A stretch of 33,366 bases of DNA, taken from IMG/VR virus record IMGVR_UViG_3300033067_002516, positions 1 through 33,366 of that record. One strand, given 5' to 3'. Positions 3 to 28,317 of the stretch are shown piece by piece; positions within the stretch are counted from its first letter, which is position 1, and the number at the start of each line of letters is the position of its first letter. Made by a program: the position numbers and the translations under genes. The DNA comes from a virus (lineage: Duplodnaviria > Caudoviricetes). Under the pieces are notes generated by a model that was not told the origin of the DNA, did not search any database, and saw only the letters and a list, made by a program, of their open reading frames with translations.

Positions 3-212
3 TTCGATGGCTCTGCATCTTTATCAACAGAAAACTCAGGAGTTGGACTCCTTTCTAAAAAGTGGGGATGGTACAGGATCATTATTGAATTGGCGAATAA
101 AGATTTGCAAAAATTTGATGAACTCCTTGAACGACCAATATTCGAAATCCTTAACTTATTATCATACCTTACAGACGAGAATCTCGCAAGTAAAAATAAA
201 TTAGAAATATAA
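3..212 (+). CDS. Partial CDS (5' truncated), tail assembly chaperone-like C-terminal part
   Basis: My translation of frame 3 is FDGSASLSTENSGVGLLSKKWGWYRIIIELANKDLQKFDELLERPIFEILNLLSYLTDENLASKNKLEI*. The KWGWY..LA..D..FD..P..E.LN.LSY pattern resembles the gene that follows TerL in related phages. Not in the ORF track. Confidence 0.7.
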   Translation, partial: FDGSASLSTENSGVGLLSKKWGWYRIIIELANKDLQKFDELLERPIFEILNLLSYLTDENLASKNKLEI

Positions 213-219
213 ATAAAAA

Positions 220-714
220 ATGATATATCAATCGTATTATGACACCTATTCAGGATTAACTACAATGTTGATGCTTGTTGCAAATTCGCATAAAAATGTT
301 GCTGATGTTAATATCGGTGAAGTTGATGATTATACTGTGACAGGTCGTGATGTTTATCCTATGTGTTTTTTTGAATTACCTATCCAGGCGAATTTTACAT
401 TAAATACTATTCAGTGGAATATATCTGTTACAATTGTTGACCAAGTATTACATGAGAGAACAGATGAGCAAGAAAAAATAAATTCATGTTTTAATATTTG
501 TCAAGATTTGATCGAAGCGTATAAAGATTTACCTAATGCAGGATTTTCTGCTTATTCTAATTCCAATCAATATTGGATCAATAATGAATCTGTTAATATT
601 ATGACTTTAACAAGATTTAAAGATGATTTTAATGCTGGAGTTCGACTTGAATTTATGATTGAGCAATCAATTCCTGTCAATACTTGTATATTGTTAAACT
701 CTTTTAATGTATGA
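220..714 (+). CDS. Putative tail terminator / tail completion protein
   Basis: 164 aa with YPMCFFE and RFKDDFNAGVRLEF motifs; position in the tail module. Confidence 0.55.
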   Translation: MIYQSYYDTYSGLTTMLMLVANSHKNVADVNIGEVDDYTVTGRDVYPMCFFELPIQANFTLNTIQWNISVTIVDQVLHERTDEQEKINSCFNICQDLIEAYKDLPNAGFSAYSNSNQYWINNESVNIMTLTRFKDDFNAGVRLEFMIEQSIPVNTCILLNSFNV

Positions 715-1115
715 TTCAGGAATTAATTAATCTTATATTAAATTTAGTTAAATCATCTTGGATTGGGACAGGAATTGATAAAAATTCAGATTTAATAAAA
801 TCTGTACAACTCCAATATTCAAATTCAGATGGAATAATAATTTATGCTAATTCATACGCTGAAAATATTCAAAAAGGAAGAAAAAAATTCTCAAAGAAAA
901 TCCCAATAAATTTTTTAATTGAATTTGTTAAAAAAAATAATAGATCAGCAAAAAATGTAAACAACATTGCTTACGCTATACAGAATTCAATTTATAAAAA
1001 TGGTATTTCCGGTAAAAATATAATTAATGGAATTGAAAAACCATTATTAAATTCAATTGAACCGGTCATCGACAAAAACATACTTAAAATAATCGAACAA
1101 AATGTCAAATATTAA
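711..1115 (+). CDS. Putative neck/tail completion protein (HK97 gp10-like)
   Basis: Basic 134 aa protein with SYAENIQKGRK and IAYAIQNSIYKNGI motifs; ATGA overlap with the previous gene. Confidence 0.55.
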   Translation: MIQELINLILNLVKSSWIGTGIDKNSDLIKSVQLQYSNSDGIIIYANSYAENIQKGRKKFSKKIPINFLIEFVKKNNRSAKNVNNIAYAIQNSIYKNGISGKNIINGIEKPLLNSIEPVIDKNILKIIEQNVKY

Positions 1116-2787
1116 CAGAAATCCTTTTATTTATTTGGTTGCATCAAGTGCAACTGATTATAATGCTTATTCTTTGAATAATAATGTGACGATTATTTCT
1201 TCACCTCCAGTAATTAATGCTGTAAAAAACCCAATTGTTTGGACATTGCAATCTTCAGCGATAACTTCTACTGTAGAATATTCAGAATTATCAATTAATG
1301 TTAATTCTTTAACTGCAGAAGGTGAATATTTTGGATTTTCTGGAGGAACAAATTTTGACTATCCTCAATTTCAGATGGTAAGTAAAAATGAACCTGGAAT
1401 TATGGAGTATTACTCCATTAATACAACTCCATCTAAATCAACAGTTGAAGTTGCGGAGTGTATTTGTTCAGTTTTGAATGAGGATTTTAATTTCAGAGAC
1501 AGATTTTTTGCTGTACAATCAGGAACAACCTTTATTATTCGTTCAATTCAACCTGGTTCAAGATATAACATGAACTTTTCTTCATCTTCATCCGCAATTT
1601 CACAAAATTATGTTATAAATGCAACAGACACAAATCGTGGACAACAATTGAAGGATTATTGTGTGTGGGCTGATATATATTTCGGATCATGGGGATATTA
1701 TGCATCTGCTTCAACAATAAATAGAACTGGTTCTACTTATGTAAGTTCAGTAGAAATAGATTATAACCCCAATAATGTTTATAATTTCAATGTTTCAAAT
1801 TTTCTTGAACCTTATCTTTCAACTGATTTACCATTAGTGTCACAAACCACATTTTGGAGGGATTCTTCTGCAAATAATAATGTATATTTGGTTTATGGAG
1901 AAAAATACGATGAATTTGAAAATAATTTTCGCAGAAGATTTCTTGTTGGACAGACGGAAATTTCATGGGCAAATCATAGTTATGTAAATTATTTAATTGG
2001 AGGTAATTTATCTGGTTATTCTTTTGATTTATTCACAACTTCAGGCGATAATAAAGTATTTTTAACATCAGCACCCTCAGAAAAAGAAACATTAACCAAT
2101 CAATTAGAATATTTAGGAATGTTAATTGAAGGTAATGGTACACTTGCATTGTGTGTTCGTGGTATTTATGAATATTGGGATGGAACGCAATTTACTTATG
2201 AAAAAAATAACACAACTGCTTTTGATTTAGGTGGTCAGTGGTATACAGATGTATCTTATGCTAATCTAAATTTTGGAGCAGGGCAAACTGTTAGAAGATA
2301 TACTTGTGGAATTTATAAATATAATTCAGATATTCCTGATTCATCTCGAACATTAATTTCAGAAATAAGAACTTTTGAAATTCAACCAGATTGTGCTTCA
2401 ACTTATCAAAAACAAATTGTCTGGTTAGATAATGTTTGGGAAACTTTTATTTTTAATGGAGAAATCCAGGAGGAAGTTGATCGTGATTTTGAAACATTCA
2501 GAATAGCGTTGAGTTTTACTCCTTCTCAACAAGATATTTTATCCCAAGTAATAAACATTGATGTAAAAAAAATAATTACAGCAAAAACAAGATGGATAAA
2601 CAAAAAACATTTTGATTGGTTATTAACAATTCTTAAATCTTCAGATGTAAGACTTTATGAAGATGGATTATTTAAATCTATATTCATAACAAAATTTGAT
2701 TATAAATTAAATTCAATTGACCAATTATATAAAGTTGAAATTGAATATATTTTGTCTTCTGGTGAAAATTCATTAAATAATTCTTAA
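1102..2787 (+). CDS. Virion tail structural protein (distal-tail-like C-terminus)
   Basis: 561 aa, beta-rich; C-terminal WLDNVWETFIF...TRWINK..FDWL..IL.S.DV pattern; synteny. Confidence 0.6.
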   Translation: MSNINRNPFIYLVASSATDYNAYSLNNNVTIISSPPVINAVKNPIVWTLQSSAITSTVEYSELSINVNSLTAEGEYFGFSGGTNFDYPQFQMVSKNEPGIMEYYSINTTPSKSTVEVAECICSVLNEDFNFRDRFFAVQSGTTFIIRSIQPGSRYNMNFSSSSSAISQNYVINATDTNRGQQLKDYCVWADIYFGSWGYYASASTINRTGSTYVSSVEIDYNPNNVYNFNVSNFLEPYLSTDLPLVSQTTFWRDSSANNNVYLVYGEKYDEFENNFRRRFLVGQTEISWANHSYVNYLIGGNLSGYSFDLFTTSGDNKVFLTSAPSEKETLTNQLEYLGMLIEGNGTLALCVRGIYEYWDGTQFTYEKNNTTAFDLGGQWYTDVSYANLNFGAGQTVRRYTCGIYKYNSDIPDSSRTLISEIRTFEIQPDCASTYQKQIVWLDNVWETFIFNGEIQEEVDRDFETFRIALSFTPSQQDILSQVINIDVKKIITAKTRWINKKHFDWLLTILKSSDVRLYEDGLFKSIFITKFDYKLNSIDQLYKVEIEYILSSGENSLNNS

Positions 2788-2792
2788 AAGAA

Positions 2793-5255
2793 ATGCAAGA
2801 AAGACTTTATATAAATAATCAAGTTGTCGATTTAGACGCTAAATCGAGTATTAATCTTAATCGAGATTTTAATGATTTACAAAATCCAGAAAGTAGGGTT
2901 GGTGATATATCGCTGAATATCAAATTACCAAAAACAAAGAACAATAAAATAATTTTCGAGCATGTTCAGGTAGAAAATAAACAAGATAAGTTTGTTAAAA
3001 CATTAGATTATACGGCTGAATATTATGTGGATGGTCGTGTTACTTTTCAGGGTATTTTTAGAATTTTATCTGTTGAAAATAATAATTTTAATGGTGTTTT
3101 GATGGGCGATAACATTGCATGGGCAAAAAAGTTATCTGGTAAAACTCTTCGTGATTTAAAAAATGATGATTTGGTTACACCTTGGAGTGCAATATTTTAT
3201 GGTTGGTCAGGAAGTTCAACTCCATACTCTGCAAATTGGTATATAAATAATATTGACTATAATACCCAAGATATTTTATTTCCGCTAATAAGTTATGGTT
3301 CTTTTTTTACAGCACAACAAACACCATACACCAATCAAATATTTTTGGACAGTTTAGCAGGAGATGATGTTCCACCTTCTGTCTATGACTTAAAAATAAT
3401 CAAAAGAATTTTTCAAAATATCGGTATGAATGTTGGTTCAAGTATATTCTCTGTTGTAGAAAACCAAAGAGTATACATGCCTTTTACGGCCAGTGACAGA
3501 TACACTTGGAATTATGGTCAAATCATGGCAGCGAGTGCAAATAATTCTGCTTTTAATGTTGAACAGGTATTTTCTGCTACGACTTTAGCAGATTATTCAG
3601 AAAGAATTAATTTTGTTGCGGAAGCGACAAATTTAAAATATACAGATTTTATTATATTGGATTTTCCTAATATAACAAATAATCCGGCTGGTAATATTGT
3701 CACACAATCTTTTCTTGGTCAAAATGGGATTTTTACAGCACAACAATATAATTGTCCAGTAACAGATTTGTATTCTTTTGATGTTGTAATTAATGATTGG
3801 ATGTTTTACAATAGAGGATTTTATAGGACAGACTTTTCAACACAATTTGCATCTGCTTTAAATCCTGCACTTGCAAGTTCTGCTTATACTCCAACTTATT
3901 TTTTAAGAGATGGAATATTTATTTATCTTGACGATGAGTATGGGAGTTATACCAACCAAGTCATGGAAAATATAACAAGATATTGTTGGCAGTTTTATGA
4001 GACTTATTTTGATGATTTGGCAATTGATAATAATTTGGTTCTTGCAGCTTATATTCCTTCTCATACAGGTACAACAACATTTTTTCAACCATACGATGAT
4101 AATGCAAATATTATTGTTACAGGAACTAATGCTTATACATTATATTCTGGATGGAGCAGTCCATTTGAATATTATGATATAAAAGTAGAAGGCACATCAA
4201 GATTTGAATTTCGTGATATTTTAATTCCATCTGGATTTTCAATTAAGGTTGGTATGTTCGGACCGGCTTATTCGTCTGGAAGTACTGCAACATTTGGTGG
4301 TACAGGAATTGCTGATGAAATAAGTACTGGTTTTTCAGCCAGTTCAGTTCAAATTGAATTTTTTTCATCAAAAAACGATGATATTAATTTAAATATTACA
4401 AATAATCTACCTGATATAGGTCAATTGGATTATGTTAAGAGTTTTTTAAATCGCTATCACTGTTATATTCATTGTGATTATTCGGATAATACAATTTATT
4501 TTGAACCTTATAATTCATACTTCTTGTCAAACGATTTTCAAATTGAAATTGATGATATTTTTGATAATAATTTTTTCGAGCCAGATACTGAGCCGATCAA
4601 ATTACCAAAAAATATATATTTCAAATGGTCAAATGATAACACAGATGCATTACTTAAACAAGATTTAAGTTATGGTAATTTGCAGATAACTTCCGATAAT
4701 GTGTATAATGAAGGTGAAAAAACAATACAACTTTTATTTTCTGCAACAAAAATGAGAGATTTTGATCTTATTACACCTGGGTTTAATGTATCCGCATCAA
4801 CAATTTCTTTACCTTCTATTTCAAATGAAGAGTCTTTTTCAAATTCTGAACTATCAGGTATAACATGGAGTTTTGCTTACACACCAAGATTGTTAAAATT
4901 AACTGGTGAGTATGCTAATCTATCTGGGGTTACCATTTTTACACAAGTTGGAGGGTACAACTCCAAGATTTTAACTTCTGAATTCAAAAATGAGACTGAA
5001 GGTAAATTATCTTTGGCTTATGATGGAGAAAATGGATTATATACAAATTATTTTGAAAGATTTTATTCAGAGATTGGTGATTCGTATATATTAAATTTAG
5101 ATGCGAAGTTAACTCCTGAATATTTTGAAAAGATGCAGACCAATGTTCCATTATCATTAAATGGGCAATCTTATTTTTTAAATTCAATTAAGAATTATAA
5201 TGTTTTTTCAACAAAACCTTCAAAATTAAGCATCATCAAAAAATTCACCAATTAA
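2793..5255 (+). CDS. Tail tip / baseplate hub-like structural protein
   Basis: 820 aa; N-terminus LYINNQVVDL...DLQNPESR..DIS.NIKLPKTKNNKIIF resembles Bacteroidota phage tail-tip proteins. Confidence 0.65.
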   Translation: MQERLYINNQVVDLDAKSSINLNRDFNDLQNPESRVGDISLNIKLPKTKNNKIIFEHVQVENKQDKFVKTLDYTAEYYVDGRVTFQGIFRILSVENNNFNGVLMGDNIAWAKKLSGKTLRDLKNDDLVTPWSAIFYGWSGSSTPYSANWYINNIDYNTQDILFPLISYGSFFTAQQTPYTNQIFLDSLAGDDVPPSVYDLKIIKRIFQNIGMNVGSSIFSVVENQRVYMPFTASDRYTWNYGQIMAASANNSAFNVEQVFSATTLADYSERINFVAEATNLKYTDFIILDFPNITNNPAGNIVTQSFLGQNGIFTAQQYNCPVTDLYSFDVVINDWMFYNRGFYRTDFSTQFASALNPALASSAYTPTYFLRDGIFIYLDDEYGSYTNQVMENITRYCWQFYETYFDDLAIDNNLVLAAYIPSHTGTTTFFQPYDDNANIIVTGTNAYTLYSGWSSPFEYYDIKVEGTSRFEFRDILIPSGFSIKVGMFGPAYSSGSTATFGGTGIADEISTGFSASSVQIEFFSSKNDDINLNITNNLPDIGQLDYVKSFLNRYHCYIHCDYSDNTIYFEPYNSYFLSNDFQIEIDDIFDNNFFEPDTEPIKLPKNIYFKWSNDNTDALLKQDLSYGNLQITSDNVYNEGEKTIQLLFSATKMRDFDLITPGFNVSASTISLPSISNEESFSNSELSGITWSFAYTPRLLKLTGEYANLSGVTIFTQVGGYNSKILTSEFKNETEGKLSLAYDGENGLYTNYFERFYSEIGDSYILNLDAKLTPEYFEKMQTNVPLSLNGQSYFLNSIKNYNVFSTKPSKLSIIKKFTN

Positions 5256-5270
5256 TATTTATATATAGAC

Positions 5271-8200
5271 ATGGCAGAAAGAAAAATAATATATTCCATT
5301 AAAATTAATGGAGTTGAGCAATCAACCAAAGATATAAAAATCCTTGGTGAAGAAATAAATAATCTTGGTGATTCAGTGTCCAGCCTGGACATGAGTGAAA
5401 ATACATTTTCAGTTGATGGTATTGAAAATATAAATACAGAGATAACTCAAACTGGTGAGAAATTTGATTCAGCGGGTAATTCTGTAAATAATTTTGATGC
5501 AAATCTGGATAAATTATCATCAGATAGCGTTGTAAATGTTGGTAAAAATTTAGATTCAACAACAGAGAAAGTTGATAAGTTAACATTCGCTGGTGAGAAA
5601 GGATTTAAGGGATTATCCGATGCATTAAAATTATTTGGTGTTGATACTTCAATTTTAGATAATGTAAAAGAAGGGTTAGGTGCAATAGGTGATTTATTGG
5701 ATTCCAATTCCAAACTTAATGATGTTGCACATAATTCTGCTCCTGCAGCTAAACAAGCGGAAACAATTAAAGAGTTGGCTGGGGCACAAAAGGCTGCAAA
5801 TACTGCAACGAATGCAGGTACAATTGCAACAACCGCATCTTCCACAGCAACTAAAGGTGCAACCTTTGCTACTCAGGCATTTAATGTTGCTTTACGTGCT
5901 TTACCTTTTCTTGCAGTTATCGGGGCTATTACAACAGTTATTGCATTGTATAAAAATTGGAAAGATGCTCAAAAAGAAAATGCTGAAAATTTAGCATCAT
6001 CTTTTAAATTAATTGAACAAGAAATAAATAATGTTTCTGATAAGTATGAAGAATTAAATCAAAATGTAGAGACAAATTCTAAATTTAATCAAATAGGTGC
6101 AGATGCCAGAATTCAACAATTAAATGAAGAGTTAAAATTATTGGAAATAAATGGAGCAACTGCACAACAAATTGCAAATAAAAGAACAGAAATTTTAAAA
6201 GCAGAGATTGCTTTACAACAACAACTTATTACATACAATAATACAGCAATTACTAATGCTGGTAATCAAATTTCTGAGTATGATGCATTGATTAGTAAAT
6301 TAACTAAAGCAAATAATGATTTAAGAGATTTAAATGCAAAAGAAAAAGATTCTGAAATTAGACAAATTAACCAACAATCTATTAATGATAATGAAAAAAT
6401 TATTAATGACACAATTTTAGAGCAAAATAAATTAAATCAAAAGAGAAATGATTTAAATTTAGAAAATGCAAAAATAGAAAATGATATTAATATTAAAAAA
6501 CAATTTGGTGTAAAATTAATTAATGCTCAAACCGCTGAAGAAAATAAAAAATTAGAAGTTTTAAAAGAACAAGAAAAAATAAAATTATCAGAAGAATTAA
6601 AGAAAGTTGGTCTTGAAATATTTCAAAATTATCTTGAATTAAAAAACTTCAATGATGAATTTTTTAGATTATATAATGAACTTGAACAATCTGTTAATAA
6701 AGATAAATTAAAAATTGCGGTTGATGCAGGTGACTTCGATAAAGCGTTTGATTTATTAATTAATTCATTAGATAATTTTGATTTTGAGTTAAAAAATAAA
6801 AAAGAAAATATAATTAAAAACCTTGCCGAACCACTAATCCAGGCAAGAGTATCTTTATTGGATTTTCAAAGTAAAATAAAAGATGAATTAAAAATAAGAT
6901 TAAAGTTAGAAGGTGTTGAAGAAATAAAAATTGATTCAACAATTAAAAACATTGAAGATAAATTATCAAATTTAAAATTTGATATATCTTCTGCTTTTGA
7001 ATTTGATTTACCTGTTAATTTTCAAACACAAGTATTTGATAAAATATTTAAATCAAATATAACTTCAATTCAAAATTATTCTAATGAAGTTATTGATGTT
7101 CGTGAAAAAACCAAAAATGGTTTGGTGGATTTAACTCCTGAAGAATATTTCTTATTTGATTTAGATAAATTATCAAAGAATTTTAATATAACAGACGGAA
7201 TACTAAATCAAAACTTCGTAGAATTCCTATCTTATCAATTAGAATTAAAAAAATCCATTTCTTCAATTAAAGAAGAATTAGATACTGAATTTCAATTAAA
7301 AGGGTTTTCTACAGAAAGTACAGATAGTCTTAATCAATTTGTTAATTCTTTAATTAACACAGATAAATCATTATCTGAAGTTAATAAAAAAGTAACTGAT
7401 ACATTCGACAACCAAACAGTTGTTCAATCAGCAGTCTTAAAGACTTTTACAGAAAAAATTAATGAGACATCAAATTTATTAAAAAATGTTGAAGGAAATT
7501 TTACAGAAAGTTTCGATAACATACAAAATATTGTTGATGCTAATTTGGATGGTCTACAAGATAAATTTAATAATGGAGAAAATTTAAATTTTAAATTGTT
7601 TTTAAACAATGATTTAAAAGAACAATTAAAATTAACTTTATCTGAACCGGTTCAAAAAACAATTGATGATCTCAATAAAAAGAAAGCAGAACTCCAAAGA
7701 ATATTTGAAGAGTTAATTAAATTAAATCCTAATAATGAATCTGAATTAAAAAATGAATTAAATGGTGTGTTATCTGATATTGATGGATTTATTGTAAAAT
7801 TAGAGAAAAAAGTTGAAGATAATAATAAAAAAGTTGAATTAACATTTAAAGAATTTTATGATAAGTACGCACAATTAATTTTTGACACGCTACAGGCATC
7901 AGTAGATTTGTATGCTGCAATAAATGATTTACAAATTCAATCATTGGAACAACAAATGGAAGTTGTTGATGAATATTATGATGGTATTGCAGATAAGTAT
8001 GAAGAAGAAATTGAGAGAACACAGGAGTTTTACGACCAACAGGCACAAATTGCAAATGATTCTATTTCAAAAATTAATGATTATGAAAATCAGTTAAAGA
8101 CAGCAAGGGGAGCAAGAGCAGAATTTTTACTTAAACTTATCGCTGCAGAACAAGAAAAAAATCAAAAAGCAGAAAAAGCAAAATTAGATGCATTAAAAAA

Positions 8201-9347
8201 AGAACAACTTGCAAAAAAAGAAGCAGCAAAAGCAGAGGAAGAGCGAGCTGCTGAATTAGATGCTCTTGCAAGAAAGAGATTTAATTTACAAAAAGCAAAT
8301 AACATGGCTCAGATTATCTTAAGTACAACTGTGGCTGTAATGAAGGCTCTTGCACAAGACCCTGGACCACCTACAACTATTCCTTTAGCAGTAATTACTG
8401 GTGTATTGGGAGCAGTACAATTAGGTATTGCAGCAAGTGCAAAATACGAACAAGGTGGTGTATTGGATGTTATGGAAAATGGTGGTGAATTATCCGGACC
8501 TCGACATTCAGCCGGTGGACTTGCTGTAATTAACATGCAGACTGGTCAAAAAGTTGCAGAGGTAGAAGGAGAAGAATTTATCGTTAACCGCCAATCTACT
8601 GCAAATAAAAATAATTATCGTGTAATTAATAATATTAATAAAGACGCTAATTACATGGATGATAAAATGGTTGTACGTACAACAGATATTGAAAAATTAG
8701 AAAAGTATTCCCAAAGTTTATCTAAAAATAATAAAGAGACAATTAAAGACAATCAAATTCCGCCTGCAATTAAACCTGTTAAGGAATTTGAAGATGGAGG
8801 TTTATTTTTTAAAGATATATATCAAAATTATAAATTTGAAGATGGGGGTAAAATGTCTTCATTGGAGTTTTACGAAAATATTTTTAAATCTGATTCTAAT
8901 TTAAGTAAAAATTCAAATAAAATATCAAAATATAAAATCAATGAAATTGATATTAATGAATTTGATTTGAATAATGTTTCGAAATTCGAAAATGGTGGTA
9001 AATTATATAATTCTATTTTGAATAATAATCAAAGTAATTTATCTTCAACTTCAACATTAAATAAAAATATAAAAAATAATTATTTAGAGACCGGTGGAAT
9101 TTTATCAAAAATTGAAAACTTCTCGACACCTAATTATTCAAACATGATTAATTCTATTACAAATGCAAATAATAATCGTCAACAAGCAGTTAATGTTACG
9201 CCTATAGTTCAGGCTAATGTTGATTCAGAGTCAATTACTAATGCAATTATAGATGGAATGGCAAATGTGAATATTCAGGCGAGCATCCAGGATATTATTC
9301 AACAGAATAATAATCAGGTTCAAATTGATAATCTTCGTAGGATTTAA
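5271..9347 (+). CDS. Tape measure protein
   Basis: 1358 aa; long coiled coil; hydrophobic segments (AFNVALRALPFLAVIGAI, PLAVITGVLGAVQLGI); GPRHSAGG...EVEGEEFIVNR motif. Confidence 0.85.
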   Translation: MAERKIIYSIKINGVEQSTKDIKILGEEINNLGDSVSSLDMSENTFSVDGIENINTEITQTGEKFDSAGNSVNNFDANLDKLSSDSVVNVGKNLDSTTEKVDKLTFAGEKGFKGLSDALKLFGVDTSILDNVKEGLGAIGDLLDSNSKLNDVAHNSAPAAKQAETIKELAGAQKAANTATNAGTIATTASSTATKGATFATQAFNVALRALPFLAVIGAITTVIALYKNWKDAQKENAENLASSFKLIEQEINNVSDKYEELNQNVETNSKFNQIGADARIQQLNEELKLLEINGATAQQIANKRTEILKAEIALQQQLITYNNTAITNAGNQISEYDALISKLTKANNDLRDLNAKEKDSEIRQINQQSINDNEKIINDTILEQNKLNQKRNDLNLENAKIENDINIKKQFGVKLINAQTAEENKKLEVLKEQEKIKLSEELKKVGLEIFQNYLELKNFNDEFFRLYNELEQSVNKDKLKIAVDAGDFDKAFDLLINSLDNFDFELKNKKENIIKNLAEPLIQARVSLLDFQSKIKDELKIRLKLEGVEEIKIDSTIKNIEDKLSNLKFDISSAFEFDLPVNFQTQVFDKIFKSNITSIQNYSNEVIDVREKTKNGLVDLTPEEYFLFDLDKLSKNFNITDGILNQNFVEFLSYQLELKKSISSIKEELDTEFQLKGFSTESTDSLNQFVNSLINTDKSLSEVNKKVTDTFDNQTVVQSAVLKTFTEKINETSNLLKNVEGNFTESFDNIQNIVDANLDGLQDKFNNGENLNFKLFLNNDLKEQLKLTLSEPVQKTIDDLNKKKAELQRIFEELIKLNPNNESELKNELNGVLSDIDGFIVKLEKKVEDNNKKVELTFKEFYDKYAQLIFDTLQASVDLYAAINDLQIQSLEQQMEVVDEYYDGIADKYEEEIERTQEFYDQQAQIANDSISKINDYENQLKTARGARAEFLLKLIAAEQEKNQKAEKAKLDALKKEQLAKKEAAKAEEERAAELDALARKRFNLQKANNMAQIILSTTVAVMKALAQDPGPPTTIPLAVITGVLGAVQLGIAASAKYEQGGVLDVMENGGELSGPRHSAGGLAVINMQTGQKVAEVEGEEFIVNRQSTANKNNYRVINNINKDANYMDDKMVVRTTDIEKLEKYSQSLSKNNKETIKDNQIPPAIKPVKEFEDGGLFFKDIYQNYKFEDGGKMSSLEFYENIFKSDSNLSKNSNKISKYKINEIDINEFDLNNVSKFENGGKLYNSILNNNQSNLSSTSTLNKNIKNNYLETGGILSKIENFSTPNYSNMINSITNANNNRQQAVNVTPIVQANVDSESITNAIIDGMANVNIQASIQDIIQQNNNQVQIDNLRRI

Positions 9348-9352
9348 ATTAA

Positions 9353-9376
9353 AAACCCCCATTTATTTGGGGGTTT
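9353..9376. terminator. Bidirectional intrinsic terminator
   Basis: AAACCCCCA-tttatt-TGGGGGTTT between convergent genes, with A/T tracts on both sides. Confidence 0.8.
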
Positions 9377-10394
9377 CTTTTTTTAATTTAATTTGTTTAT
9401 TGTATAAAATTTTATCATCAATTGATCCTTCTAAATAACTTAAAATTAAACTTTTAAAACTTGCTCTAAAAATTGGTAAATAAGTAAGTGCAATTTTCTC
9501 GTCTTTCAAAACAGAAATTAGATATTGCAAAATATACTTCATTACAGATTCTTCCTTTTTTTCATTAAAATTTTTGGAAGTTATTTTGAATTTTTTTATC
9601 AAATAATTCTTAGCATAAGTTGAAGTCCTGGTATACATGTACATACCCATAATTTTATTTTTTGAAAACATTCTGCTTGCCTGGATATATTTTTCATCAA
9701 GCAAAAAACTTCTAACAACATCAGATTTAATTTGAGAATTTGTTATAAAATATAAATAAGTTGCAATTACTCTACGAACATCCATGTTATCTTCAGTATA
9801 ATCACTTACCAACTCATTGGCAGCACTTTGGATGTCTTTGGTAAGTATTTCTGGTCTGGTTAAAAAAGATCGTCTTGATAACATCTCTCTTTTTGAGATA
9901 AATTCAATTTTACATTTTTTTTGGAAATAATTAAAACATGATTGTATGTCGGAATTGAAATAGTGTTTGACTTGAACCCAATTTTCAAAATTATGCTTTT
10001 TCATGAATCTTTCAAAAACAGACCTATCACCGATATAAATCAAAGCCCTTTCAAAAGTATTTGTTTTTGGATCAATTACTTCTTCTGGTATATTTAATAA
10101 TTTTCGATTTCGTAATAAATTTTTCTTAAAGTGGTCAATCGCAACAGTAAATATATTATCTCTTCTTTTGGTCTGGTATTCTCGTTGGTATTTTTTCCAA
10201 TAATCATAATTCTCAGCCTTAAATTTAATCATTACTTCCTTTTTTGCTTGTGCTACACAATCTAAACATTGGATAATGAATTCATTATAAGGTTTATGTT
10301 TATAGTTTTTTTGATAATGATTAAGATGTTCTTGATCTAAATCTTTAACATCGCCACATTTTTTACAGATAAATTGTTGGTTTCTTTCTTCCAT
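9363..10394 (-). CDS. Hypothetical protein with N-terminal Zn finger (CxxC...CxxC) and basic helical region
   Basis: CKKC...CLDC followed by KKYQREYQTKRR; no catalytic HNH motif seen. Confidence 0.6.
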   Translation of the reverse strand: MEERNQQFICKKCGDVKDLDQEHLNHYQKNYKHKPYNEFIIQCLDCVAQAKKEVMIKFKAENYDYWKKYQREYQTKRRDNIFTVAIDHFKKNLLRNRKLLNIPEEVIDPKTNTFERALIYIGDRSVFERFMKKHNFENWVQVKHYFNSDIQSCFNYFQKKCKIEFISKREMLSRRSFLTRPEILTKDIQSAANELVSDYTEDNMDVRRVIATYLYFITNSQIKSDVVRSFLLDEKYIQASRMFSKNKIMGMYMYTRTSTYAKNYLIKKFKITSKNFNEKKEESVMKYILQYLISVLKDEKIALTYLPIFRASFKSLILSYLEGSIDDKILYNKQIKLKKETPK

Positions 10395-19209: not shown

Positions 19210-22200
19210 ATGGCATTTAGAAAAGTCGATAAACCTGTTATTAATTATACACCACCATCTAATGATTCACTTAGATTGGTGACTGGTAATACTGCATTGG
19301 TGACAGTAATTAATGCAGTTGTACCTATTTCTGGCATAACAAATATCGGCAACGGACCTGGTTATGTATTTTCATCTGTTCAAAATAGAATTGCAGAGTT
19401 TAGAGGTTTATCGGGTGATACAAATATTTCGATAAATTATGTCCAGTCAGGTGATACAGTTGGTATTCATCTTAATGATAACATTATTGTAAATTCAATA
19501 TCAGCCACAACTTTTTATTCTGGTTCTACACCATTATCACAATTACTCACAGGAGGCACAGGGAGTTTTACTCAATTATACGTTAGTGGAGGAACAGGTT
19601 CAGAAAGTTTAATTTCAATATTACCTGCATCTGATTCAAATTTAGCAGCAAATAATGCAGTTGTTTTATCAAAATCATCATCTGGACTTTCAACATTTTC
19701 TTCAATTTTTGGAGGTAAAAATAATTTAATTAATTCAACTTCAGATTATTCTTCTGCAGGTGGATATAATAATATAATTAATCCAAGTAGTAATTTTTCT
19801 AAAATATTTGGTAAAACAAATAGAATAAATGGGACTTATACAAATGTTGATGGGTTGTATAATTCAGGTTATACATCTTTCTCTAAAATATCAGGTAAAC
19901 AAAACTATTCAATCGGTAATTATTTTGGAATATTTCAATTGCTTTATAATTGTTACGGCTTAAATACGATTAATGGTGCAAATAATCACACAACAAATGC
20001 AGGTGTTAATAATATACATAATGGATTTTCTAACTGGATTTTTAATGGAAATTATAATTCAATATTAAATGGTACAGAAAATAGAACATACAACTCCTCT
20101 TTAGCATTAATCCAAGGATCATCCAATAAAACATACGGTGTTAATTATTCAACCTTAATCGGAACAAATAATATAACAACAACTGCGAATACAAGTCTTG
20201 TTCAATTTAATTCAATCGTTGGTGCAACTCAATCAAGAATAGAAGATTCTCCTCTTAGTTCAGTTTGGGGTGGTCAATTAAATAAAATAACAGGTATAAC
20301 TCCAGGTTTAAATACTATTTTGAATGGAGATGGAGCAAAAATTCATGGTTCAAGATCAACAGTAATTAATGGATTTAATTCTTTTATTCTAAATTCATCT
20401 GATAACTGTGCGATAATTTCAGGTAATGATAATAATATTTTAGCCGGTAAAAATTCAATTATCTTTAACGGTAATCTAAATGTTGTTAATTCTTCAACAG
20501 GCGTAACATTAATTAATGTAAATAATGTAACAACAAATTCATCGGATGAAAATTTATTAATTACAAATAAAATTAGAAGTTTATACCTTACCGGTGGTAC
20601 CACTCAAATGGTGGTGGCTGATGTAAGTGGTAATTTATCAACACAAGCTATTCCATCAGGTGGAACTGGTACAGCATTATTTTCAGGAACAACAGCAGGT
20701 GGAATTAAACAAATTTATCCTGCTGATAATAATATATCAAATAATGACTATTCAGTTGTTTTAGGTAAAAATAATAAGATTTATAATAAGTATAGTATAA
20801 TATCTAATGGTAACTATAACACTATAAATTTAGGATCAGGTGCTTATTCATTAATTGGAACTGGTGCTTATAATAATATAAATTCTGGAAATTTTAATTC
20901 TATTGGAAATGGTTCTCTTAATTTAATTTCAGGAGCCACACATTATCAATCTGTTGGAAATGGAAAAAGAAATAAAATATATTCATCTTATTTCGCCAGC
21001 ATAAATAATGGATCAAGAAATTATATAAGAAGTTCAAACCATTCAACTGTTCTTGGAGGGTATAGAAATAATATAATAAATAACCAACATTCAACAATTC
21101 TGAATGGAAGTTATAATACAATATTATGTACAGGTAGTACTGACGGAAATGTGATAATAAATGGTGACCATAATACTATTCAATATTCCAGACATTCTGC
21201 AATTTTAGCAGGTAAATACAATTTATTAAACTCCACGAATTATTCTTCAATTATTTCTGGAAGTTATATCACAGGTTCAACACATAATACAGCCTTTGGT
21301 GATAAATTACAATTAAAGAGTTTAACAGGAGCAACCAGTCAAATGGTTATTGCTTCTACTAATGGATTACTTTCAACTCAAGCAATTCCTTCTTCAAATT
21401 CAGTAAACAATGGATTAAATACTTATACAGCCGGGACTTCTACTTTTCAATCGGTTAATGTTTCTGCATTAACAATTAATAATTTAACTGTATCAGCAAG
21501 TACAAGTTTAAATACATTATCTGCAACAACTGTACAAGTTAGAAATCTTTCAGGCGGAACAACAAGAATGGTGGTTGCAAATACCAGTGGTGTGTTATCC
21601 TCACAGGCTATTCCCACTTATACTCAATATTGGGCAATTGGTGGTGTGGCATCTTCTTTGGTGCAAAATAATGGTTATACAACAGCCAATTCAAATTTTT
21701 CAATTGTTGCTGGTAAAAATACAAGTATTGGAATTAATTCTAATTATTCAAATATATTAGGAGGACTTTCAAATCAAAATATAGATAATAATAAATATTC
21801 AGCCATTGTTAATGGATTTGAAAATAATATAAAAGATTATTCAAATCATGCTTTTATTGGATCAGGAAGAGGTGGATATATATACAATTCTAATAATTCA
21901 TCAATTTTAAATGGCTATGGCAATAGAATATATAATTCAGTATCAAACTCTGAATCAAAATATAATACCATTTTAGGTGGATATACAAATAAAATAATCA
22001 GGTCTTTCCATTCAATAGTTTTAGGAGGTTATCTAAATTCAATTGGAACAGGTGATTATTTAAATAAGTATTCATTGGTATTTGGAAAGCAGAATTATGT
22101 CCAAGCGGATTATTCTGCAATAATAGGTGGACAAGGATACACCCTTACAGAAAATAATACTTTAATGACACCTAAATTGAAGATTGGAAATTTACCATCA

Positions 22201-27218: not shown

Positions 27219-27310
27219 AAATAGATTGAATTATGTGAAAAATAAAATGATTTTATATATACTTGATTATCAATGTGATTATTTATTGTTTATTCTATTG
27301 ATAATTAATA

Positions 27311-27347
27311 TAATGGAAACTTTAAAAGTGGACGAAAGTTTCCATTA
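27311..27347. repeat. Perfect 13-bp inverted repeat
   Basis: TAATGGAAACTTT-N11-AAAGTTTCCATTA at the left edge of the non-coding locus. Confidence 0.8.
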
Positions 27348-27413
27348 AAATAAGTTGTTGGTGTGCCTTTAGTTTTTTAAGATGTAATTTCTATTAATTT
27401 TATTAACAATACC

Positions 27414-28317
27414 TGGAGTTTAACTTATCTAACAATTAAAGTTAGGTTAGTCTAACTTATTATCTGAAATGTGTTGGAGTTCTACAAACATTCATTGGAG
27501 TTTTACAATAAAAACCGAGCCTTCTTTTAAAAAAAGGTCAATAGTCAGGGGTAAAACTCCATTTTAACTTAAAAATTGGCTAACCAACCTAAAAATTAAG
27601 AGTTAAACTCCAATTGCTATTTGATTTTTAAAGTATAACTCCATGCTTATACGTTAAACTTCAATGGTTACCTTAAATTTTAAATGTTATCTGAAATTTA
27701 TTCCACATCACAGTTGTTGCTTGGGGTACTCCAGAAACTTAATTGTTGTTTAAGATTTAATTTAAGAATAAAAAGTTATTGAATGGAGTTTAACTTAGAT
27801 TAGTTGGACTTCTACATAAACGAATTGAGTTGTAAAACTCCATTTCAATTTAAGTAAAGATCAAATGGAGTTTGACTGTAATGTAATCATAAAAATTGAT
27901 TGTTATACGATCAGAAAAAAGTTGTCTTTGTTTTGTCATCCTATTGAACATAATATATATTATAGAACACTCACTTTCTTAGAAAAGTACAACTCCTTGT
28001 TAAAATCCAATTTTTCTTTATAATAATCTTAGAATAGTACAAGTTTCTTTTTGTGTCAAAAGTTCCATTATTGGGAACTTTATTTTTATGTGTTAACATT
28101 GGAGTTTTACGTTAATTTTTATTTAAACTGGACTTCTACATTAGATAGACCACCGGGGATAGTATGACTGACTATTTGTCAATTTTTTGCATCTCGGTTC
28201 AAAATAAAAATTTCTATTTTTTCAAGTACCTAAAAGTAAAACTCCATAGTTGTAAAACTCCTGGGATAGAAAGTAGAACTCCAATAAATGTTGTTATAAT
28301 TTAAAAGTTAAACTCCT
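27414..28317. repeat. Array of 17 GGASTTNNAC / GTNNAASTCC sites in both orientations
   Basis: Core starts at 27415, 27476, 27497, 27551, 27602, 27633, 27785, 27806, 27832, 27867, 27987, 28101, 28130, 28236, 28252, 28273, 28307; near-matches at 27653 and 27999. Confidence 0.92.
27943..27970 (-). other. dif-like XerC/XerD recombination site
   Basis: Minus strand GTGTTCTATAA-TATATA-TTATGTTCAAT has the 11-6-11 layout; the right arm differs by one base from the E. coli XerD arm TTATGTTAAAT. Confidence 0.75.

Follow-up and report, generated by a model that had tools for sequence, protein, structure and literature searches.

A Bacteroidota-type dif-like site within the repeat array of a tailed phage that has no recognized recombinase gene

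We describe a 28-bp dif-like element in a tailed phage (Duplodnaviria; Caudoviricetes), IMG/VR virus record IMGVR_UViG_3300033067_002516, which was analyzed over its whole length of 33,366 bp (27% G+C; hereafter, the window). This element, at positions 27943-27970 and in non-coding DNA according to the open reading frame (ORF) list of the window, is by its sequence a near-exact copy of a Bacteroidota chromosomal dif, and it is found in a phage in which our searches recognized no recombinase gene. The site is likely to be bound and recombined by XerC and XerD of the host, because its identity to dif includes the asymmetry of the two arms, because it is present in two unrelated phages, and because it is conserved. 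For the role of such a reaction, we tentatively favor the resolution of multimers of a non-integrated, circular phage genome.

The dif-type site and its chromosomal counterparts

On the minus strand the element reads GTGTTCTATAA-TATATA-TTATGTTCAAT, in the 11-6-11 layout of dif and with inner inverted repeats (plus strand, ATTGAACATAA-TATATA-TTATAGAACAC), which is the string that the initial annotation of this DNA had proposed as a dif-like site. It is located in a 1082-bp gap (27219-28300) that contains no ORF of at least 60 aa and that separates two blocks of leftward genes. A small ORF spanning the site was rejected as coding, since the changes between the window and the relative described below are, as read by eye, mostly non-conservative.

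Similarity to the dif of Escherichia coli is a poor guide to this element. The two agree at 20 of 28 positions, and a match of at least 20 was reached in 83 of 500 dinucleotide shuffles of the window; a pattern of ATAA-N6-XerD arm with at most one mismatch was present in 15 of 100 shuffles, and in a window this AT-rich the expectation for the XerD arm with one mismatch is 8.7 occurrences. We therefore rejected E. coli dif as a yardstick, as a match of 20/28 lies within chance and is no evidence by itself. The dif sites predicted for Bacteroidota gave a different result. Supplement file 2 of Kono et al. 2011 (PMC3025954) lists predicted sites for 19 Bacteroidetes, and most of the non-Bacteroidia sites in that list have the form nnGTnnTATAA-TTTATA-TTATGTTAAAT. 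Against the Bacteroidota consensus GTNNTATAATTTATATTATGTTAAAT, the window site has two mismatches (0/100 shuffles match) and the site of the relative has one (0/200 shuffles match). Against the 23-nt chromosomal core CTATAATATATATTATGTTAAAT, the window agrees at 22 and the relative at all 23 positions, whereas the best match in 600 first-order Markov simulations of the window was 21/23, with none reaching 22. The nearest chromosomal site that we found, TTGTTCTATAA-TATATA-TTATGTTAAAT (contigs L094 and L127), is identical to the window site at 26 of 28 positions and to that of the relative at 27 of 28. Since agreement with the core at 22 to 23 of 23 positions was absent from all 600 simulations, the match is above chance, and the proposal that the site is of the dif type, and of the Bacteroidota kind, is upheld by these comparisons.

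In order to place the site among chromosomal sequences, we searched a metagenome collection with the pattern CTATAATATATATTATGTTMAAT, which itself fixes a TATATA center. Approximately 140 stretches contain this pattern, of which 119 were analyzed. These 119 sites comprise 50 different 28-mers, all alike except for the outer five bases of the XerC arm; the core is invariant, and the M position is an A in every site. All 14 of the larger contigs that we scanned for genes encode bacterial proteins, e.g., GyrA, a ClpB-like ATPase, ValS, DnaE, and MutS2. Sorting domains of the type IX secretion system were found on 4 of these 14 contigs, a Xer-like recombinase 4.4 kb from the site was found on 1, and in 5 (L055, L113, L082, L094, and L103) the dif site directly follows gyrA and a tetratricopeptide-repeat gene. 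Because the 119 sites share one core and all scanned contigs are bacterial, dif with a TATATA center is, as judged from these sequences, a natural chromosomal dif of Bacteroidota. The XerD-side flank of the chromosomal sites often ends in a G-rich, hairpin-like stretch, with the XerC-side flank being variable, and a second dif-like site is present nearby in 8 of the 119 loci, with no clear pattern.

The phage itself encodes recognizable portal, capsid-like, tape-measure, and holin proteins, a sigma-factor-like protein, and a primase-like protein with a BT4734/VirE N-terminal domain; only the N-terminal part of the large terminase is present, as this gene is cut by the contig end. A collinear relative (contig C21 of G003; 33,398 bp), which is circularly permuted with respect to the window, shows that approximately 2 kb are missing from the window, and that these contain the remainder of the terminase and two genes with no recombinase domain. 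Searches for tyrosine and serine recombinases and for rve transposases with PF00589, PF00239, and PF00665 found no match in the window, in this near-complete relative, in the further relatives G001 and G002, or in a phage of a second lineage (G006, below), so that the absence of a recombinase gene, as noted at the outset, holds beyond the window.

Conservation, host group, and a second phage lineage

The intergenic region that contains the site is conserved in the collinear relative only in part. A single island of 171 bp (Table 1) out of the 1082 bp can be aligned, at 85% identity, compared to 66-71% DNA identity in the flanking genes, and this conservation reaches approximately 70 bp to either side of the site. 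Within the site itself the relative differs by one base, G to T at 27946, by which its XerD arm becomes identical to the consensus TTATGTTAAAT (11/11). The G to T change recurs in sequencing run X1, in at least two more diverged variants, whose contigs break at an exact common 30-mer, 27949-27978. Conservation in related phages, which had been named as a check on the proposed site, is thus seen both in the relative and in these variants. The strong conservation of the site implies that the phage spends a selectively relevant part of its time in dividing cells.

Two further relatives are less informative on the site. The contig of G001 ends before the region, so that the site region is absent from it. 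In the more distant relative G002, the two contig ends at the corresponding place (L027, positions 1-120, and L028, last 120 bases) are reverse complements of each other over approximately 110 bases and lie inside the array; a large inverted repeat may have interrupted this assembly, and its missing center is the place where dif would be expected. Elsewhere in G002, at 19433-19460 (L027), a 58-bp gap between genes contains ATGTTTTATAA-TTTATA-GTTTGTTATAT, which has a good XerC arm, a common chromosomal center, and a poor XerD arm, and which may be a chance match or a degenerate second site. Among viral contigs, neither the exact 28-mer (no match) nor the flanking proteins as queries (no relatives) led to other phages, and among cultured phages a blastn search with the intergenic region found no match.

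Several features of the phage point to its host group. The 4-nt Shine-Dalgarno core precedes only 1 of 35 window ORFs, and A makes up 57% of the 20 bases that precede the starts; leaders that are A-rich and lack a Shine-Dalgarno sequence are the Bacteroidota style of translation start. A comparison of the portal with 50,697 records of cultured phages matched only two phages, both of Nonlabens (Flavobacteriaceae) and both entered under two records. Because Shine-Dalgarno sites are missing and, among cultured phages, the portal matches those of Nonlabens only, the host is likely Flavobacteriia-like, and the Bacteroidota-type dif points to a host group in the manner that the initial annotation had anticipated. 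The relative was recovered in a metagenome-assembled genome (MAG) labeled Coxiellaceae. We rejected this MAG as the host, since the sole dif-type site in it is that of the phage and the phage genes have no Shine-Dalgarno sequences; the Legionellales treated in PMC9765430 use XerL with an unrelated dif and have no canonical dif. The presence of the contig in this MAG is probably a binning error, because the window lacks Shine-Dalgarno sites, the dif of the contig is of the Bacteroidota type, and no other dif-type site is found in the MAG.

Searching the viral collection with CTATAATATATATTATGTTMAAT identified four records, of which three form a single lineage that is unrelated to the window by tblastx. 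For example, the record G006 (35,963 bp, with a 97-bp terminal repeat, and rated 100% complete) encodes the TerL, portal, tape-measure, and endolysin proteins of a siphovirus, and its terminase is closest to those of Croceibacter, Chryseobacterium, and Cellulophaga phages. The G006 site, TTGTCCTATAATATATATTATGTTAAAT, is located in a 570-bp intergenic gap, is identical at 28/28 positions to the sites on the chromosomal contigs L055, L113, and L082, and is not accompanied by an array of the window kind. This lineage is large: the viral collection contains 113 relatives by terminase, and 770 relatives by portal were found at E <=1e-30. Where the lineage has a dif-like site, the centers are TATATA, TAAATA, AAAATA, or TTTTTA, and in two sites both arms are of the XerD type. 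Phages of this lineage also have another, incomplete look-alike, AACAA-TATATA-TTATGTTTAAA, 1.1-2 kb upstream of the terminase gene (L162, 1703; L163, 894; L166, 2803; L168, 4036; L171, 8386; and others).

Further look-alikes came from cultured phages and from one provirus record. A blastn search of the site against cultured phages gave mostly Microviridae matches in non-coding DNA, and no tailed phage with the full site. The Rheinheimera phage vB_RspM_Barba1S (MK719702.1), an 80-kb cultured myovirus, contains, within 1.25 kb of non-coding DNA, AACCTATAA-GATACA-TTATGTTAAAT (L242, 1494-1524), the XerD arm of which is perfect; at the corresponding place, matches of 21-24 nt are recorded for the Barba phages (83 records in our tally), and one such match in 2.3 Gb could be due to chance. 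Record G007, which has a Mu-type head module and is classed as a provirus, contains ACTTCCTATAATATATATTATGTTAAAT at 47419-47446 (L040), inside an open frame and 72 bp from the record end. The same 28-mer is present on eight metagenome contigs with differing flanks, and it may be a host dif at the edge of the provirus call.

Repeat array, neighboring genes, and sequence context

The site is nested in an array of a repeated motif, GGASTTNNAC, of which the window contains 35 copies compared to an expected 0.76. As first described, it occupies a motif-free gap between two oppositely oriented copies, at 27867 (+) and 27987 (-), and these are the innermost convergent pair of the array. The corresponding array of the relative (L025, 6233-7610) uses GGAATTTGAC instead, with 40 matches compared to 2.4 expected, yet the order of orientations is nearly identical in the two phages despite the different motif: given as the number of consecutive copies on each strand, it is +3, -3, +2, -1, +1, dif, -1, +2, -4 in the window and +6, -3, +2, -2, +1, dif, -1, +4, -4 in the relative. 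Since the motif changes while the architecture stays, these arrays suggest a phage-encoded binding protein that co-evolves with the motif. The array may, as the initial annotation proposed, be an accessory architecture. A polarity of the kind seen in FtsK-orienting polar sequences was rejected for these repeats, as six copies to the left of the site point towards it and four away from it. Another 17 copies are dispersed from 39 to 23754, of which 13 run with the direction of the gene that contains them; those at 39-9619 comprise five on the plus and four on the minus strand.

Table 1. Features of the dif-type site and its surroundings in the window
Feature	Position	Strand	Observation
Left neighbor gene, 214 aa	26574..27218	-	51% identical in relative; no Pfam/PHROG match
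GGASTTNNAC array (17 copies; orientation alternates by block)	27415..28316		Motif search
Conserved island around the site	27873..28043		Alignment with G003:C21, 85%
XerD-type arm TTATGTTCAAT	27943..27953	-	10/11 to TTATGTTAAAT, the arm in all 119 metagenome sites
6-bp central region TATATA, palindrome	27954..27959		Same as chromosomal centers, these having been retrieved by a pattern that fixed TATATA
XerC-type arm GTGTTCTATAA	27960..27970	-	Inner CTATAA as in Flavobacteria-class dif
Right neighbor gene, 156 aa	28301..28771	-	No detectable similarity to same-place gene in relative

The product of the right neighbor gene is a candidate for the motif-specific binding protein. The left neighbor contains a D...EVK motif, and its structure neighbors in the Atlas belong to the phage PD-(D/E)XK family PF24579, with template modeling (TM) scores of 0.51-0.57; a PD-(D/E)XK nuclease fold is, from these neighbors, a lead only.

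We also examined the region for promoters and RNA structures. A sigma-70-like match, TTGTCA-17-TATATT, overlaps the site on the plus strand (27933-27961), and a terminator-like hairpin is present approximately 100 bases downstream of it, at 28059-28081 (+). These two elements bracket the right half of the conserved island, and a short transcript is at best conceivable. Promoter-like matches are not enriched in the region (12, compared to 6.7 +/- 2.6), no stable fold was found for a hairpin at the site (z = 0.9), and no tRNA, tmRNA, or Rfam family was found in the window.

Possible roles of the site and relation to known Xer-exploiting elements

In the reading that we tentatively favor, XerC and XerD of the host would bind and cut the dif-type site of a tailed phage that has no recombinase of its own, and this phage would persist as a circle in dividing carrier cells rather than as a stable prophage, with Xer recombination resolving circular multimers into monomers. 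The phage-specific array would help to organize this reaction, or would belong to the same maintenance region, and the phage would be expected to co-integrate with the chromosome now and then, reversibly, as a side reaction, since a full dif does not discriminate between its partners. In E. coli, FtsK activates Xer recombination at dif at the closing septum. Multimer resolution is favored because no integrated copies were found, because the site lies in a repeat region that resembles a maintenance region or an origin, and because the centers drift in the G006 lineage. Varying centers are tolerated when a site recombines with itself, and not when it recombines with a host dif, unless the host differs too.

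A number of observations weigh against this reading. In the window we recognized no gene for a partition ATPase, a plasmid replication initiator, a repressor, or a toxin-antitoxin system; nothing in the gene content shows a plasmid-like or carrier state, and a phage that is purely lytic would have no obvious use for multimer resolution. In E. coli, dif placed on a plasmid with no accessory sequences recombines both inter- and intramolecularly and is, by itself, a poor resolution site. In the more distant relative G002 no site is seen at the syntenic position, which is exactly where its contig breaks, and the site is missing from Nonlabens phage P12024S, the nearest cultured relative. In the G006 lineage it is not universal: among the 27 loci that extend at least 5 kb upstream of the terminase, only 5 have a dif-like site at the syntenic position. 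The site is dispensable in that lineage. Finally, the C in the XerD arm of the window is private to it, being present in none of the 119 chromosomal sites and in no relative; relatives have an A at this position, and contigs of run X2, the likely source run, confirm the C of the window. A wider form of the proposal, that tailed phages of Flavobacteriia use the dif, XerC/XerD, and FtsK of their hosts for an integrase-free lysogenic or carrier state, with a phage protein bound to the array controlling the reaction in the window lineage, is doubtful at present.

The principal alternative is that the phage is a mobile element of the integrative kind that exploits Xer (an IMEX), i.e., that its circular genome integrates and excises at host dif through XerC and XerD, which would be integrase-free lysogeny in a tailed phage. 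Both arms and the center are as in natural chromosomal dif, so that full strand exchange with a host dif is possible; the window and its near-complete relative contain no recombinase gene; and the strong conservation of the site implies a role in dividing cells. Integration at dif is, moreover, described in PMC9719478 for PhiCjT23-like non-tailed prophages of Flavobacterium. Many Microviridae records match the site in non-coding DNA, as seen above in cultured phages. Microviridae proviruses of Bacteroidetes are of the IMEX type. We nevertheless consider this alternative rather unlikely, as none of our searches for an integrated form identified one. These searches were not exhaustive, and covered viral, genome, and metagenome collections together with read-set contigs. 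The 17 portal relatives of the window are all on phage-sized contigs of at most 37,107 bp, and the single match in the genome collection (185,579 species) is a free 33-kb contig; the best 120 of the 770 portal relatives of G006 are likewise all on contigs of at most 43,147 bp. None of the 119 metagenome dif loci joins window-type phage genes to bacterial genes. When these loci were searched for phage genes of both lineages, three contained them, all of the G006 type; where both flanks were available, each consisted of phage DNA. In run X2, one contig bridges the site and no joint is listed there, a result that is compatible with a rare integrated form, as contigs drop rare variants. The provirus class is assigned to none of 47 records of the G006 lineage and to none of G000-G002, the sole exception in our set being an unrelated Mu-like record. 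An exchange of dif for an integrase among relatives was rejected as well, since PF00589 is present in 0 of these 47 records, 21 of which are at least 90% complete, and relatives without the site therefore carry no integrase in its place. In E. coli, XerCD activated by FtsK efficiently excises DNA that is flanked by two full dif sites, for which reason a perfect dif would be a poor stable attachment site, and this too counts against integration. Of the two fates that the initial annotation had offered, integration at host dif thus found no integrated copy, hybrid junction, or provirus record in its favor in the collections and reads searched; the other fate, a circular form with host Xer resolving its dimers, agrees somewhat better with the data and is likewise unproven.

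Two further explanations are improbable. In the first, the site would bind Xer proteins for another use: it could titrate Xer or FtsK as a decoy and so disturb the segregation of the host chromosome, or it could be a landing pad on the phage for small dif-integrating elements. The identity to dif described above would serve this explanation equally, a patchy distribution such as that in the G006 lineage (5/27) is as for an accessory trait, and the site is carried by lytic-looking phage lineages whose integrated forms are never seen. A landing pad, however, would not be conserved by selection on the phage, and we saw no inserted element at any copy of the site; we know of no precedent for a phage dif used as a decoy or a landing pad. 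In the second, which we regard as just as improbable, the site would only mimic dif and would be a promoter, an operator, or the AT-rich core at which an iteron-type origin made up by the array unwinds. The promoter-like match and downstream hairpin described above, the position of the site midway in an iteron-like array, and the conservation of approximately 70 bp on each side, which is more than a Xer core needs, would all fit such a function. Against this, promoter-like matches are not enriched, and no stable hairpin and no Rfam or tRNA match was found at the site. Bacteroidota promoters follow a consensus other than the sigma-70-like one. AT-rich unwinding leaves unexplained why asymmetric arms should agree with the chromosomal core at 22 to 23 of 23 positions, and the same site is present in an unrelated phage that has no such array. 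Chance resemblance in AT-rich DNA, which would account for the E. coli dif match alone, is most improbable, as 0/600 simulations reach the observed Bacteroidota-core match and the site is conserved in relatives inside an otherwise unalignable intergenic region.

Several known systems resemble parts of what we describe. Phages of the IMEX type (CTXphi, VGJphi, and TLCphi; the Vibrio double jelly-roll phages; and the PhiCjT23-like phages of Flavobacterium) likewise have no integrase and carry a dif-like site that matches the host, and the PhiCjT23-like single-stranded DNA prophages and the microvirus cases described in PMC9719478 and PMC12715192 are from the same host phylum. The described IMEXs are, however, non-tailed, integrated, and flanked by dif, and many have crippled or single-armed sites, whereas here a full dif is present in a 33-35 kb tailed phage for which no integrated copy was found. 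Plasmid Xer sites such as ColE1 cer, pSC101 psi, and Acinetobacter pdif resemble the window in that an extrachromosomal core is accompanied by a conserved flank, and at these sites host XerC and XerD keep the replicon monomeric. In cer and psi, approximately 180 bp of accessory sequence is located on the XerC side only, and is bound by PepA with ArgR or ArcA. The window differs from these two in that conservation and a phage-specific array are found on both sides, the core is of the chromosomal type, and the replicon is a phage. Dimer resolution by site-specific recombination in a tailed phage that persists as a circle is known from the lox-Cre system of P1 (PMC5357621); in P1 the recombinase is phage-encoded, as are the functions for plasmid replication and partition, whereas the window has no recognizable recombinase or partition gene and carries a site of the host kind. 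The Legionella element LME-1, as described in PMC9765430, is a mobile element of tens of kb that relies on the dimer-resolution site and recombinase of its host, and differs in that it depends on one recombinase only, XerL, and on a dif with no sequence relationship to the present site, and in that LME-1 is found integrated, where no integrated copy of the window was found. In PMC12715192, IMEX phages are treated explicitly as non-tailed, a term search of the Xer review PMC5357621 found no mention of tailed phages, and a full-text search of the literature, with bioRxiv preprint supplements outside its scope, found no tailed phage described with a host dif.

The exploitation of Xer has so far been known from filamentous phages, double jelly-roll phages, small single-stranded DNA phages, and plasmids. 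If tailed phages of Flavobacteriia do use the dif of their hosts, those described here would be the first Caudoviricetes among the elements that exploit this system, and would include a lineage that is abundant in marine metagenomes. An array wrapped around a Xer site would then represent a new mode of control of Xer recombination, the dif variant carried by an uncultured phage would be a cheap marker for the clade of its host, and some phages now counted as lytic for want of an integrase may in fact be able to persist unnoticed.

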